Below are positions 2,833 to 9,966 of a DNA stretch of 10,653 nt, piece by piece (within the stretch, counting starts at the first letter, position 1; every line of letters begins with the position of its first letter). A program made the position numbers and the translations under genes. The DNA lies in IMG/VR virus record IMGVR_UViG_3300036770_002544, positions 1-10,653 of that record. The stretch is one strand, 5' to 3'. The notes below the pieces were generated by a model. It was not told where the DNA came from, ran no database searches, and saw only the letters and a list, made by a program, of their open reading frames with translations. The stretch comes from a virus (Duplodnaviria; Heunggongvirae; Uroviricota; Caudoviricetes).

Positions 2833-3207
2833 ATGAAAGTCACTGAAGATCAGTTTCGTTTTGAATGGTTCTCCGGCACAGGCAAAGGGGGACAGCATCG
2901 CAACAAACATCAAAATTGTTGCCGCTGTATTCACGAGCCCACTGGAATCACTGCCAACGGAACCAACAGTCGCAGTCGTGAAGACAATCGTGCAGCCGCA
3001 TATACAACTTGCCGCAGCCGAGTAGAAGCACACTTTCACACAGACACTGAGCGTTATCTCGCCGGCACTGAACGTATTCGAACATATCACGAAGCTGATA
3101 ACCGTGTGGTAGATCATGCATCGGGATTGACTGATAGTTGGACCAATGTTATAATCAAAGGTGACTTTGAGCCTGTGATAACAGCTCGGGCCAAAGCAGT
3201 TAGGTAA
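2833..3207 (+). CDS. stand-alone GGQ peptidyl-tRNA hydrolase domain protein (RF-1 domain, 124 aa)
   Basis: SGTGKGGQHRNK catalytic loop, IHEPTGITA strand, and ERIRTY...NRVVDH motif of class I release factors. Track start 2785 lies inside the tRNA, so ATG 2833 is used. Confidence 0.85.
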   Translation: MKVTEDQFRFEWFSGTGKGGQHRNKHQNCCRCIHEPTGITANGTNSRSREDNRAAAYTTCRSRVEAHFHTDTERYLAGTERIRTYHEADNRVVDHASGLTDSWTNVIIKGDFEPVITARAKAVR

Positions 3208-3493: not shown

Positions 3494-4029
3494 TTAGTTC
3501 AAGTCCAAAACGCGGTCACTTTCAGCGAGACTGCTACATCCAACGTTGCCAAGATGAGGGCGAAGAACCTGATCCCTTGATGCTCGGTATCTACGAGTAC
3601 AAGGATAGTTTAGATCCCGCAGCAGATAACAGCAACAACATGGAGTGGGATCTGCGCACCACTGATTGGATATTGGCCAAGGTCCGTACCAGCGAAGCAT
3701 ACGCTCAAAACTTGTATGCAGCCATGTGCAATAATGACTTTCAACGAAATGAAGTTTGGCCACAGTTAAAAAATCAAACTTGGTCATGCTCCTGGCGCTA
3801 TGCAGGAGGCATTGTTGCAGACATGCGTCAAGAAGGTGACTACATTGATTGGTACTGCTCGGGTATTAGAGGTAGTGCTAGTGAAGAACAACTAGCAGAA
3901 TACTCAGAAGAAGACCGCGAACGGTATCATTGGATGGACCAAAACTTTGTAAGTGAAATGACTGTAACCGATGAAATACGTGCAGATTTGTTTCGTTTAG
4001 GATGGATTGTGATTGACAATTCAGAATAA
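3490..4029 (+). CDS. acidic hypothetical phage protein (179 aa)
   Basis: ORF track; Trp/Tyr-rich segment YAQNLYAAMCNN...WSCSWRYAGGIVAD...YIDWYCSG; function not recognised. Confidence 0.85.
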   Translation: MISSSPKRGHFQRDCYIQRCQDEGEEPDPLMLGIYEYKDSLDPAADNSNNMEWDLRTTDWILAKVRTSEAYAQNLYAAMCNNDFQRNEVWPQLKNQTWSCSWRYAGGIVADMRQEGDYIDWYCSGIRGSASEEQLAEYSEEDRERYHWMDQNFVSEMTVTDEIRADLFRLGWIVIDNSE

Positions 4030-4045
4030 TAAATATATAATATAA

Positions 4046-4335
4046 GTTATTGCTGTATGAAGCAAAGAGAAAAGTGTTCTGGACGAGGGTTCGATTCCCT
4101 CCATCTCCACCAAAAGCATTCTATCCCCACCTGACGAGGAAGGATCAAAAGAACTAAAAAGAATGCTTCTGATGGGGATGATCTGGTTTCGACAGGGCAA
4201 AGAGTAACAGAGTGGACAGCACAAGAGCAACCTTGTAAAAAGAAGAAAATCTATAACTGCAAACGCAGCCAATGATGAGGTATTTGCCTTAGCGGCATGA
4301 TCTCTGGGGCAACTATGCCTTATTACCCAAAATAG
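4046..4335 (+). ncRNA. ssrA: circularly permuted (two-piece) tmRNA
   Basis: The acceptor piece comes first (T-arm GAGGG-TTCGATT-CCCTC, CATCTCC-A-CCA ending 4112), then an intervening segment (4113-4173). The coding piece starts GGGGATG at 4174 (G3:U70 pair) with GGTTTCGAC. The tag ORF 4259-4300 encodes ANAANDEVFALAA*. Outer ends are approximate. Confidence 0.9.
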
Positions 4336-4336
4336 T

Positions 4337-4359
4337 GGAACCTGCTTCGGCAGGTTTCC
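4337..4359 (+). terminator. UUCG hairpin after the tmRNA coding piece (terminator or 3' processing/stability hairpin)
   Basis: AACCTGC-TTCG-GCAGGTT; weak U-tract. Confidence 0.55.
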
Positions 4360-4384
4360 TGCTGAAATTTAACTCAAGGAAATT

Positions 4385-4984
4385 ATGAAAAAACTTTTAA
4401 CCACACTTATCGTAGCCGCTGCTGGTGCAGCATCTGCTCAAACCGTTGACAACTGGACAGCCAGCGGCGCACCTGTGCGCAATGGTACCCAAGAACTGTG
4501 CTGGCGTGATGCTAGCTGGACTCCTGCCACTGCTCATCCCGACTGCGATGGCGCACTAAAGAAACCACGTGTTACTGCAACTGTTCCTGCACCAGTGGCG
4601 CCTGTGGCCAAACCTGCACCACAGCCTGTGGCAGTCAAGCAATCCTATGCTGCCGATGCATTTTTTGACTTTGATAAAACTGTGATCAAGCCCGAAGGCC
4701 GTGCCAAATTGAATACGTTGATTGCAAACATCAACAACATCACTCTTGAAGTTGTGATTGCTGTGGGACACACCGATTCAGTCGGCACCGACACTTACAA
4801 TCAAAAACTAGGTCAGCGTCGAGCAGATGCAGTCCGTGCTTACCTAGTAAGTCAAGGTATTGATCCAAAACGAGTATATACCGAATCCCGAGGTGAGCTA
4901 AAACCGATAGCAGATAATCGAACTGCTGTGGGCCGTGCTCGAAACCGTAGAGTAGAAATTGAAGTAATTGGTACTCGGCGTTAA
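4385..4984 (+). CDS. ompA: OmpA-family outer membrane / peptidoglycan-binding protein
   Basis: Signal peptide, N-terminal CWRDASWTPATAHPDCDG, Pro/Ala linker, and OmpA C-domain (FDFDK, GHTDSVG...YNQKLGQRRADAV, RARNRRVEI); AAGGA SD. Confidence 0.92.
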   Translation: MKKLLTTLIVAAAGAASAQTVDNWTASGAPVRNGTQELCWRDASWTPATAHPDCDGALKKPRVTATVPAPVAPVAKPAPQPVAVKQSYAADAFFDFDKTVIKPEGRAKLNTLIANINNITLEVVIAVGHTDSVGTDTYNQKLGQRRADAVRAYLVSQGIDPKRVYTESRGELKPIADNRTAVGRARNRRVEIEVIGTRR

Positions 4985-5802: not shown

Positions 5803-5831
5803 TTGACGAATAATTCAAGGTTTGCTACAAT
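5803..5831 (+). promoter_or_regulatory. sigma70 promoter P1 of the RNA array
   Basis: TTGACG, 17-nt spacer, TACAAT with extended TG; AT-rich upstream. Confidence 0.8.
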
Positions 5832-5887: not shown

Positions 5888-6096
5888 TTTGCAGTGTTGT
5901 TTAGGCTGATGGGCGGCAACTCGCCAGCAGTCTGTTACTTCTCCCTGATTAGTGTAGCTTTGCCGAGCGAAATAGGACGGAGTTGATATGATGAAAACTG
6001 GTAGACATGGGGTCGATATTAGACCCTGCGGGAAACTGCGTGTGGGTTCAAGTCCCACTATCATTTAAGAAGCATCAGCCTAAACAACATTGCAAA
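5888..6096. repeat. 24-bp inverted repeat (5888-5911 / 6073-6096)
   Basis: TTTGCAGTGTTGTTTAGGCTGATG pairs with CATCAGCCTAAACAACATTGCAAA, with a single G:U. Confidence 0.9.
5982..6066 (+). pseudogene. degenerate class II (Leu-type body) tRNA-like element, loop GATATTA, no CCA
   Basis: D-arm ATG-AAAACTGGTAGA-CAT, stem GGGTC/GACCC, variable arm GCGG-GAAA-CTGC, T-arm GTGGG-TTCAAGT-CCCAC; mismatched acceptor. Confidence 0.7.
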
Positions 6097-6102
6097 AAGT
6101 AG

Positions 6103-6131
6103 TTGACAATAAATTCATTGTTTGCTACAAT
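6103..6131 (+). promoter_or_regulatory. sigma70 promoter P2 of the RNA array
   Basis: TTGACA, 17-nt spacer, TACAAT with extended TG; near-duplicate of P1 (shared TTTGCTACAATA..AGCTTAGTTAG). Confidence 0.85.
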
Positions 6132-6648: not shown

Positions 6649-6724
6649 GCTCGGTTCGTCTATCGGTTTAGGACACTAGCCTTTCACGTTAGTAAGACGG
6701 GTTCGATTCCCGTACCGAGTACCA
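6649..6724 (+). tRNA. tRNA-Glu(TTC), copy 1
   Basis: GCTCGGT/ACCGAGT acceptor, CTAGC-CT TTC AC-GTTAG, TTCGATT, CCA. Confidence 0.92.
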
Positions 6725-6729
6725 TTTTT

Positions 6730-6850
6730 GGAGACAGAAACTTATCACTTGTTTGTCCACCAACCTAGAGTATGGTGATCGTGCCAACAAAGATAAGCGG
6801 ATAACGTGGACGGTGTATGGGTCATGCCTGTACATAGGCGGTCTCCACCA
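6730..6850 (+). ncRNA. CCA-ended tRNA-like RNA with a non-tRNA body
   Basis: GGAGAC/GTCTCC stem plus A-CCA, closing internal hairpins. Confidence 0.55.
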
Positions 6851-7136
6851 TATAAAAACACATTAGCGAATGCTCGTTGCTGCTGAAAGACAACGTGGGG
6901 ATGATGCAGCCATAAAGTCCTCTGAACGCTTCTAGTGTGTTTCTATATAGTTTTGAAATCAGAGGAAAGACAGAGTGGCGACTGTTCACTGCCTATTAGT
7001 GCAGTGCAAGCACAAATGAGCTAACATGTGTACTGGTTTCGATTTTTTGAAATGTATTGAAGGACGCTGGCAGACCGGCGGGGACTTTAATAGAGTGCGT
7101 AGTTTAATAGTAGAACATCAATACATTCATTTTTAT

Positions 7137-7216
7137 GTGCGTTTGGTCTAAATGTTAGGGCATCATGACATGGGGCTAGAAACCTCAAGATGCGGGTTCG
7201 AATCCCGTAACGCACA
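7137..7216 (+). tRNA. atypical tRNA, apparent anticodon AGA, with an insertion between the D and anticodon arms
   Basis: Perfect GTGCGTT/AACGCAC acceptor, T-arm GCGGG-TTCGAAT-CCCGT, TGGGG-CTAGAAA-CCTCA arm; followed by CCG, not CCA. Confidence 0.6.
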
Positions 7217-7312: not shown

Positions 7313-7401
7313 AGTTTTGATAGTTGCTTGAATCGTGGTTAACTCCACCAGACCGACACGTCTCGATCGTATCGAAGTAAGATTCCAACTATCAATTTAT
7401 T

Positions 7402-7484: not shown

Positions 7485-8093
7485 ATGTTTTACTACATGT
7501 ATCAAATCAAAAACAAAGTGAATGACAAAATTTATGTCGGAGTCCATAAAACTTCTGACATGAATGATGGTTACATGGGTTCAGGTAAAGTAATACGTGC
7601 CGCTATCAATAAGCATGGCATTGACAACTTCGAGAAGACTATTCTTGAAACTTTTGAGAGTAGCGAAGAAATGTTCAAGCGTGAAAAAGAAGTTGTAACA
7701 GAAGACTTCCTATCACGTGATGATGTGTATAATTTGCGTCGAGGCGGCTCGGGCGGTTTTGATTACCTAAACAAAACGAGACAAAACAACAAAGCCAAGC
7801 AATACCTCAAAGGCGGACAAACATACGCATCAAGATTAGAAAATGACGAAGAATTTCGCAATGCTGAGTCAGAGAGAAAATCTGCTCTAAACAGACAGCA
7901 ATACGCAAATGGTAGAGTCAGCGTATTCAAAGATTCTGTTTTACAGCAAGAACTTTCTAATAGAGCAAAGCAAGTAAATTTAGGTTCGATGTGGGTTAAC
8001 AACAATACACACGAACGCAAGATCAAAAAGACTGAACCAATCCCAGATGGTTGGGTCAAAGGAAGATTACGCACCGTTGGCGCAGTTGGTTAG
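7485..8093 (+). CDS. free-standing GIY-YIG (Seg-like) homing endonuclease
   Basis: YYMYQIKNKVNDKIYVG, DGYMGSG, catalytic-type E in KREKEV, VYNLRRGGSGG, and C-terminal MWVNN...IPDGWVKGR; AGGAG SD. Confidence 0.9.
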   Translation: MFYYMYQIKNKVNDKIYVGVHKTSDMNDGYMGSGKVIRAAINKHGIDNFEKTILETFESSEEMFKREKEVVTEDFLSRDDVYNLRRGGSGGFDYLNKTRQNNKAKQYLKGGQTYASRLENDEEFRNAESERKSALNRQQYANGRVSVFKDSVLQQELSNRAKQVNLGSMWVNNNTHERKIKKTEPIPDGWVKGRLRTVGAVG

Positions 8094-8231: not shown

Positions 8232-8660
8232 TTTGTTGTAGTGTTAGCAAGAGAAAGTCACGCTAGGGCGGCTTCTTCGAAGGGCCAAACTAGTAGAAGG
8301 TTACGGGTTCGATGCCCGACGGATCGGAAGATCCGGGTGCATGGTGGCGCACAGACTGGACAAGTATCCCAAGTGGCGTACCGAGTCCTGCCCGGGCTAG
8401 TGCATACAGGTGAATGGTGTCAATAACGATGGTGACACGTCTGCAACAAATCCTACGTTCTGCCTAATCAGCAGATACTGTGACCCACAGGATGAGAAGT
8501 ACAGTGATATGTACGGGTGGTAGTCTTTGAACCAAAAGGCCGCTAGCAATGCGAGAACGGTCCCGGTCGTGGAGCGGGTGGAGGGCATATTCAAATCAAA
8601 GGCAATCACCGTGGTGCCCAAGAGATGATGTGCTATAATTACCGCCGCGGGATGCAGAGC
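8232..8660 (+). ncRNA. large (~430 nt) highly structured ncRNA, GOLLD-like candidate
   Basis: GC-richer than its surroundings, with no credible ORF, many hairpins and a closing helix 8232-8240/8442-8450; flanked by tRNAs. Confidence 0.6.
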
Positions 8661-8817: not shown

Positions 8818-9879
8818 ATGAAATTATCAGATGTTAGATCTCTGGCACTAGAAGTCACTTCGCACTGCAACATTAGATGCCCGCAATGCTCAAGAATTAA
8901 TTGGGACGGGGAACTTGCTGAGTTTATTCAACTTCAGCATTGGGATATTAACAAAATATTACCAAACTTGCAGGTAGAATCAATGCCACAGTTGAGTTTT
9001 GTTCGAATCGAAGGTGACAACGGCGATGCACTCATGCATCCTGACATTGTGGAAATTGTTGAACATTTTTACAATGCTCCGACCAAACCACGAATTTTGA
9101 TATTGACCAATGGCTCGATGAGATCTGCTAAGTGGTGGAAAGAATTTGGCCAAAGATTTAGTGGCCGTTTGCGTGTGCAGTTCAGCATAGATGGTCTAGA
9201 AGACACGCATGCGTTGTACCGTGTGGGTGCAGACTATAACAAAACAATAGAAAATGCGCGAGCATTTATTGCAGGTGGTGGCGAAGCCACGCAACGATGC
9301 TTGATTTTTGATCACAACAAACACCAACTTGATGATATACGAGCAACAAGTTTAGACATAGGTTTTGTAGGATTGAGAATTACTCCTGGAGATCTGTTTA
9401 GATTCCAGGGAGAAAAAACATGGAAGGTATTCTGGAAGGGCAAAAATACACATGATATTGCCCCAATACCGAATTTTGATTTTGATTTCTCGCCGTGGGA
9501 ATACAATAAGACTGATGTACAAATGAGCCCAATACTCGGGTCTGATGAAATACACAAAGATGGGCTAAACCATCTTTGTCCTGTGTTTAATAAAAGAGAA
9601 ATTACTATTACGTACAAAGGACATTTAATACCTTGTTGTATATATCAAGCAGATTTGTATTTCATGCGGGACTTCAATGTAGATTATCAAAATTTAGTCG
9701 GAGATATGAATTTAATGAATTTAAATCTACGAACGCTACACGACATTCTCAGTGATCCGTTGTATTATGGTAATCGATGGGAAAGCATGCTGGCAAGCAA
9801 TAATAGATTTCCAAAGTGTCAAGCCACATGCGGATCACAACTAGATCGCAGAATCATACAAATTCAGGAGCGTTGCTAA
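8818..9879 (+). CDS. radical SAM protein with SPASM/twitch-like C-terminus
   Basis: CNIRCPQC (CxxxCxxC), GDNGDAL, LTNGS, FSIDGL...H..YR, and C-terminal CPV...HLIPCC...CQATC. Confidence 0.92.
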   Translation: MKLSDVRSLALEVTSHCNIRCPQCSRINWDGELAEFIQLQHWDINKILPNLQVESMPQLSFVRIEGDNGDALMHPDIVEIVEHFYNAPTKPRILILTNGSMRSAKWWKEFGQRFSGRLRVQFSIDGLEDTHALYRVGADYNKTIENARAFIAGGGEATQRCLIFDHNKHQLDDIRATSLDIGFVGLRITPGDLFRFQGEKTWKVFWKGKNTHDIAPIPNFDFDFSPWEYNKTDVQMSPILGSDEIHKDGLNHLCPVFNKREITITYKGHLIPCCIYQADLYFMRDFNVDYQNLVGDMNLMNLNLRTLHDILSDPLYYGNRWESMLASNNRFPKCQATCGSQLDRRIIQIQERC

Positions 9880-9966
9880 TATTGGCCTTAGGGCGACCCT
9901 TATAAAGTCGTAAGCACTGTCCAGATAAGGCAGTTAATGTGGGTTCGATTCCCACCGCTCCTACCA
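9866..9966 (+). tRNA. atypical tRNA-Ile(GAT) with a large D-loop insertion (overlaps the last 14 nt of the radical SAM ORF)
   Basis: AGGAGCG/CGCTCCT acceptor plus A-CCA, CTGTC-CA GAT AA-GGCAG (A33), GTGGG-TTCGATT-CCCAC; 101 nt. Confidence 0.75.

Follow-up and report, generated by a model that had tools for sequence, protein, structure and literature searches.

We identified a structured RNA gene of 121 nucleotides (nt) at positions 6730-6850, on the plus strand, of a 10,653-nt window that forms the start of the Caudoviricetes virus record IMGVR_UViG_3300036770_002544 (74.7 kb, 21% complete, with 35 tRNAs and a permuted, betaproteobacterial-type transfer-messenger RNA, or tmRNA). The gene is single-copy in this source record and belongs to a phage family of 51 distinct full-length members of 102-161 nt, drawn from IMG/VR and JGI contigs. 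Its fold is a three-way junction, made of an end stem (P1) and two arms (P2 and P3) that show compensatory changes and carry swappable tips, with the joining strands J1/2 and J2/3 between them. That a structured RNA gene exists here is, in our judgement, almost certain. An original prediction, made from the letters of the window alone, had described a discrete non-tRNA gene with an acceptor-like end and without an anticodon arm or T-loop hairpin. This description held, as did the features that it named at that end, namely the stem 6730-6735/6841-6846, A6847, and the CCA at 6848-6850.

The case for the element is comparative. A single-sequence fold of 6730-6850 was no better than its shuffles (z -1.0), so homologues were needed, and it is their number that shows the element to be more than chance. 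A loose pattern scan returned about ten true relatives, and core patterns then gathered the full set of members, which are carried by large, uncultured, mostly freshwater phages and lie nearly always inside tRNA arrays; one short contig with a member shows no tRNA genes. A covariance model built from 32 members scored members at 71-116 bits and the best non-member at no more than 21 bits. The known Rfam family to which the element might have belonged was not found, there being no match at E<=5 for the window copy and likewise none for seven other members, and ARAGORN called no tRNA at 6730-6850. A BLAST search of two members against 50,697 records of cultured phages gave no match, and in GTDB genomes a single scan with an exact pattern matched once, on a 3-kb contig of a metagenome-assembled genome that carries tRNAs and is probably a binned phage. 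Relaxing the search in two further scans, by freeing both stems or, alternatively, the J2/3-P3 half in full, added no more divergent members, so that the tightness of the core is not wholly an artefact of searching, although each relaxed scan still required part of that core. Our literature search, which included the exact core sequences, found no paper describing the family. We regard it as new, though of a loosely known kind, and it may be among the 8,495 IMG/VR candidates of PMC10690425. Copy number was one per record in the 28 records searched whole. A separate locus (L287:729-1680) holds two divergent copies among at least four other CCA-ended non-canonical RNAs, and two others (L243:5167-5219 and L257:2684-2739) gave sub-threshold matches to Dictyostelium Class I RNA (36 and 31 bits).

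RNAalifold and pair counts agree on the fold, with 96% of alignment cells paired and two-sided change at seven pairs; none of 500 shuffles, which ignore relatedness, reached the alignment score, and slid controls were far lower. Across the 51 members, the homologue covariation search that had been proposed as a check found covariation in P2, in P3, and once in P1, where variation in the family amounts to one C-G to G-C swap. The inner helix CTTATC/GATAAG (6741-6746/6792-6797) of the original prediction is real and covaries in the family. Its 3' hairpin (6814-6820/6827-6834) is also real, covaries, and abuts the end stem without a linker, but is not the T arm whose place it was given: the 3' arm is an irregular helix of 14 bp whose loops vary. 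At the base of this helix, the first pair (6805-6840) is A-U in 31 members and C-G in 19, and a 3-nt G-K-A bulge (6808-6810) is followed by C-G and G.A pairs with 6837 and 6836. The P2 arm, for its part, folds below its shuffles in 47 of the 51 members. In 13 members the P3 tip is lengthened by modules of ~25-45 nt. These modules are of two kinds (L236:5140-5195, L241:7805-7850, L300, L307, and L315), one of which brings a second, T-loop-like UGAAA/UGAUA bulge and recurs in 10 members. An intron origin was rejected for L236 and L241, whose longer 3' arms are nested hairpin extensions instead; anticodon mimicry by the P3 loop was also rejected, the window loop U-CAU-G being a 5-nt loop and the loops varying across the family.

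The unpaired junction bases are identical in 49-51 of the 51 members, and those of WGAAA (J1/2) and CGRAUAA (J2/3), W aside, in 50-51; the WGAAA pentamer may be T-loop-motif-like. Pair 7 of the end stem is a mismatch in every member. Moreover, bases 7 (6736), 76 (6805), and 111 (6840) are coupled, reading U/A/U in 31 members and A/C/G in 19 with one exception, and arms are common to both junction classes (four P2-arm clusters and three P3 clusters contain both). Swapping base 7 in silico lengthens P1 and abolishes the first P3 pairs, so that the junction is presumably held open by a base triple or else by selection that disfavours such mispairing.

A pseudoknot between 6755-6760 and 6806-6811 had also been proposed. 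The complement exists in the window copy, but it is not a feature of the family, of whose 51 members 2 carry the exact complement, a number that rises to 9 (against 6.5 expected) with G-U pairs allowed; the corresponding alignment cells are paired in 63% of cases, without a single two-sided change. The pseudoknot would exclude the covarying first pair of P3, its hexamer at 6755-6760 sits in the hypervariable P2 arm, and in the window copy its pairs have an ensemble probability of ~0.1. When the pseudoknot served as the basis of a pattern scan, nothing but chance matches and tRNA-Tyr genes came back. It was rejected for the family on these counts, and it might still form as a local alternative fold in the window copy and in L257.

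The ends of the gene and its surroundings are those of a tRNA array. The leader has a pyrimidine at -1 in all 51 members and U at each of -3 and -4 in 47, and the RNA begins with G in 49; all 620 tRNA calls in member loci lie on the same strand as the RNA and none on the opposite one, the next tRNA following within 15 nt downstream in 21 of 43 cases. P3 could stack on P1. The last nine bases of the RNA are those of the acceptor piece of the phage's own permuted tmRNA. Set beside tRNA itself (RF00005), the RNA has neither a cloverleaf with D, anticodon, and T arms nor the 7-bp acceptor stem with discriminator and CCA, its stem having 6 bp and its CCA being encoded in 25 of 51 members. Two functional proposals of the original prediction fared less well. 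Specific mimicry of tRNA-Tyr is contradicted by the Tyr acceptor ends in the arrays, which take 18 forms among 26 calls while the RNA stem is fixed; only one of those forms starts like the RNA, so the likeness to the neighbouring tRNA-Tyr does not reflect co-evolution. Aminoacylation as a core function is contradicted by the absence of CCA from 26 of the 51 genes, as opposed to its presence in 95% of array tRNAs (530 of 555 in the same loci). With CCA encoded in so few members and a stem that does not follow that of tRNA-Tyr, this RNA probably does not serve to be charged. The determinants that synthetases usually rely on are absent too, since the RNA has no anticodon, no elbow, and an A3-U70 pair; as the host could add CCA, charging is unlikely but conceivable.

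Among known RNAs, species 1 and 2 of phage T4 (rnaC, 139 nt, and rnaD, 119 nt; NC_000866) are likewise small stable non-tRNA RNAs in a phage tRNA cluster, with tRNA-sized spacers and paired ends. However, they do not match the covariance model (best E 2.4), their junction sequences are different, and rnaC keeps a true T arm, which the freshwater-phage RNA lacks. The T5 stable RNAs I, III, IV, RNA1, and RNA2 (NC_005859) also resemble the family in their size (103-144 nt), their position among tRNA genes, and their annotation without a function, and RNA I shares a G-initiated end stem, an encoded CCA, and a non-cloverleaf body; in contrast, the best model E in T5 is 1.1 and does not fall on those RNAs, none of which has the WGAAA/CGRAUAA junction. 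As in T4 and T5, the gene described here is a paired-end non-tRNA gene inside a phage tRNA cluster. The tmRNA and 4.5S signal recognition particle (SRP) RNA are other non-tRNA RNAs with paired ends that are matured by RNase P, but the family has no G3.U70, T arm, tag frame, or SRP domain IV motif. YrlA RNAs (RF02553) are ~110-nt phage and bacterial tRNA mimics, and the M. smegmatis Y RNA is RNase P-cut and CCA-bearing, charging not being thought general (PMC4201824). The family is similar to these in size and in its tRNA-like features, and it differs from YrlA in having the GNCGAAN0-1G motif in 0 of 51 members, no D or T arms, no Rfam match, and no Ro60 gene. The T-loop modules of RNase P, T-box, and the L1 stalk (PMC4810234) likewise set a pentamer such as WGAAA between helices, opposite a conserved purine-rich strand, but only one pentamer fits well in this RNA and the spacing is shorter. 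As half of a double T-loop, WGAAA fits one loop in 51 of 51 members and the second loop was not placed.

The RNA is, by its distribution, an accessory, mobile gene. It is absent from 43 related records that were chosen via a neighbouring protein (five of them near-complete, with 23-53 tRNAs) and present in a distant 163-kb phage (G003) whose proteins in common with the large RNA-positive records are ~40% identical on average, and the source record is nearer to an RNA-negative phage (66%) than to the RNA-positive ones (53-57%). Genome comparison led to T4-type RNA ligase 1, which in T4 repairs PrrC-cleaved tRNA (PMC10264068). The ligase occurs in 12 of 29 RNA-positive and 2 of 43 RNA-negative records (p 2e-4 raw, 8e-4 with duplicates merged, the records compared not being phylogenetically independent). 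In each of the 12 records having both, the ligase and the RNA are no more than 17 kb apart, and the ligase is found in all four RNA-positive records above 125 kb.

We hypothesize that the product is a stable, uncharged RNA, processed by the tRNA pathway, whose junction binds a conserved protein, probably as part of a tRNA-centred conflict between phage and host; we put this forward tentatively, as a possibility that falls a little short of being probable. The RNA would be co-transcribed with tRNAs and freed by host tRNA-maturation enzymes, through RNase P cleavage at 6730, 3' trimming, and CCA repair where needed, and its end stem would then be mainly a handle for processing and stability. It would be neither aminoacylated nor decoding. 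The P1 sequence, WGAAA, CGRAUAA, and the G-K-A bulge may form a compact tertiary core and there bind one conserved protein, leaving the arm tips as free scaffolds. The bound protein might conceivably be a host factor that handles or attacks tRNA, for which the RNA would serve as a decoy, and a decoy in a tRNA-centred conflict is our leading guess. Several observations weigh against this proposal. A 7-bp acceptor stem is a main RNase P determinant (PMC4201824), and P1, with only 6 bp, is one pair short of it. The search patterns force part of the measured invariance, and no protein gene is fixed beside the RNA. The support from the ligase is also qualified: in a reverse test, 0 of 12 ligase loci had the RNA within 10 kb (arrays being only partly covered), the source record (~75 kb) has no ligase, and the records G006 and G008 have none for 25-35 kb on each side of the RNA. 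We take the ligase link as a hint of shared ecology and not of a system.

Other readings of the same evidence appear less probable. One that we consider unlikely is a protein-free counter-defence RNA, in which a processed and uncharged mimic of an acceptor stem would use its invariant junction to occupy a host tRNA-attacking enzyme or clamp tRNA elbows, and which would act beside the phage tRNA supply and the RNA ligase repair pair. About as unlikely is a device made of RNA only, which would be either the core of an aptamer or ribozyme or a double-T-loop clamp that stacks on the elbows of tRNAs. In favour of such a device are the very high conservation of the unpaired bases and the order of helices and loops (stem, WGAAA, variable helix, purine-rich strand, helix), reminiscent of the L1 stalk and of the specificity domain of RNase P. 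Against it, any placement of a second T-loop pentamer breaks either the consensus or a conserved pair, none of the 51 members has a hammerhead or SRP motif, eight members gave no Rfam ribozyme or riboswitch match, and there is no downstream gene to regulate. It is rather improbable that the RNA is an aminoacylated tRNA mimic, given CCA by the host and charged by SerRS or LeuRS, synthetases that do not read the anticodon, for use in EF-Tu binding, ribosome rescue, or aminoacyl donation. P1 is fixed and does not covary freely, as might be expected of an identity set, the discriminator is A in 48 of 51 members, the first five bases are those of phage tRNA-Ser and some tRNA-Tyr, the non-CCA tails resemble decayed CCA, and the window also encodes a tmRNA and an RF-1-domain protein. 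SerRS, however, requires the D/T elbow, and the usual identity elements are G3.U70 for Ala and G73 for Ser, where this RNA has A3-U70 and A73. The RNA also lacks the D/T elbow used by LeuRS (PMC4810234) and any constant anticodon-like loop, and CCA has been lost in 26 of 51 members versus 5% of neighbouring tRNAs.

A partnership with a phage protein, be it a Ro60/Y-RNA-like particle or a role as substrate or cofactor of the phage RNA ligase 1/kinase pair, is quite improbable. The proximity of the ligase in the 12 records and its presence in the four above 125 kb would fit, as would DUF2828, which is found in 5 of 29 RNA-positive records at 7-16 kb from the RNA. Yet neither the two largest records nor the one that has terminal repeats contains DUF2828, a TROVE (Ro60) gene was found in 0 of 14 records (with positive controls, most records being fragments), the YrlA motif and an ACAGCAA handle after the closing helix each occur in 0 of 51 members, and the reverse ligase test was negative. 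RtcB was found in 0 of 72 records. Very improbable, finally, is a mere processing or punctuation signal, or a decayed tRNA or tmRNA relic, without a role as a free RNA. The tRNA-like ends, variable neighbours, CCA decay, and dispensability in most related phages are consistent with it; the near-invariant unpaired core and the 7/76/111 coupling, which persists across swapped arms, argue against it, as do the single copy and the presence of real tRNAs that already punctuate both sides.

Small stable RNAs in the tRNA clusters of phages T4 and T5 are annotations of long standing, and this family offers a counterpart with a deep alignment. Its fold is supported by covariation, its core is invariant, and nature supplies variants that have or lack CCA and whose arms are short or long, so that pull-down and structure work can target specific bases. 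If the RNA were indeed a decoy for tRNA-directed defence, or a free-standing binder of tRNA elbows, it would represent a new RNA-based phage strategy; at a minimum, the family is a new candidate for Rfam, one passed over by tRNA finders.

Table 1. Features of the RNA gene and its immediate surroundings in the window
Feature	Coordinates	Strand	Remarks
Whole RNA gene	6730..6850	+	Member of 51-sequence phage family
P1 5' strand	6730..6735	+	Acceptor-like, 6 bp, near-invariant sequence
J1/2, WGAAA	6736..6740	+	51/51
P2 5' strand	6741..6746	+	Pairs with 6792-6797; compensatory changes at three pairs
Hypervariable P2 arm	6747..6791	+	26-47 nt across family; irregular hairpin
P2 3' strand	6792..6797	+	Pairs with 6741-6746
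J2/3, near-invariant unpaired CGRAUAA	6798..6804	+	Between P2 and P3
P3 proximal 5' strand	6805..6812	+	Three pairs with 6838-6840
P3 distal hairpin, 9 bp	6813..6835	+	Six pairs covary; tip variable
P3 proximal 3' strand	6836..6840	+	Joins P1, no linker
P1 3' strand	6841..6846	+	Pairs with 6730-6735
Discriminator A and CCA	6847..6850	+	A in 48/51; CCA encoded only in 25/51
tRNA-Glu(UUC)	6649..6724	+	Directly 5' of RNA gene; context
U-rich spacer, 5 nt, after tRNA-Glu	6725..6729	+	Probable 5' leader
Sigma70-like promoter, 11/12 match	6103..6131	+	Second copy at 5803-5831

The tRNA-Glu(UUC) and the RNA gene are probably on the same transcript, and the promoter at 6103..6131 probably drives the part of the array that holds the RNA gene, which lies downstream of both sigma70-like promoters. 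Between these promoters, a 24-bp near-perfect inverted repeat (5888-6096) surrounds a tRNA-like unit (~5988-6064) that has D-like, 6-bp anticodon-like, variable, and T arms and its own promoter at 5803, and that is missed by ARAGORN and the Rfam tRNA model. Atypical tRNA-like genes at 7137-7216 and 9866-9963 score 51 and 41 bits in Rfam, and ARAGORN misses both. Further stem-closed non-tRNA units lie at 6856-6942, 7051-7127, and 7317-7395, of which the latter two fold well (z -3.9 and -3.3). In the loci of the GGAGAC RNA, BLAST matched these units seldom or never, so they do not travel with it. A non-coding stretch at 8240-8450, 3' of tRNA-Asp, is common to 7-17 homologous loci and contains a T-arm-like hairpin; an Rfam search of it gave nothing above noise, and it is probably another conserved RNA. 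Outside the window, a family of 71-aa open reading frames (G000:C1:20456-20671) occurs near tRNA arrays in 19 of 72 records, without a Pfam or PHROG match, and is weakly enriched with the RNA (12 of 29 RNA-positive versus 7 of 43 RNA-negative records). Clustered upstream of the array, the window encodes an acyl-carrier-like protein (2050-2304), an RF-1-domain (GGQ) protein (2833-3207), the permuted beta-type tmRNA (4020-4391), and an OmpA-family protein (4385-4984), and a GIY-YIG endonuclease gene at 7485-8093 overlaps tRNA-Asp at its 3' end.
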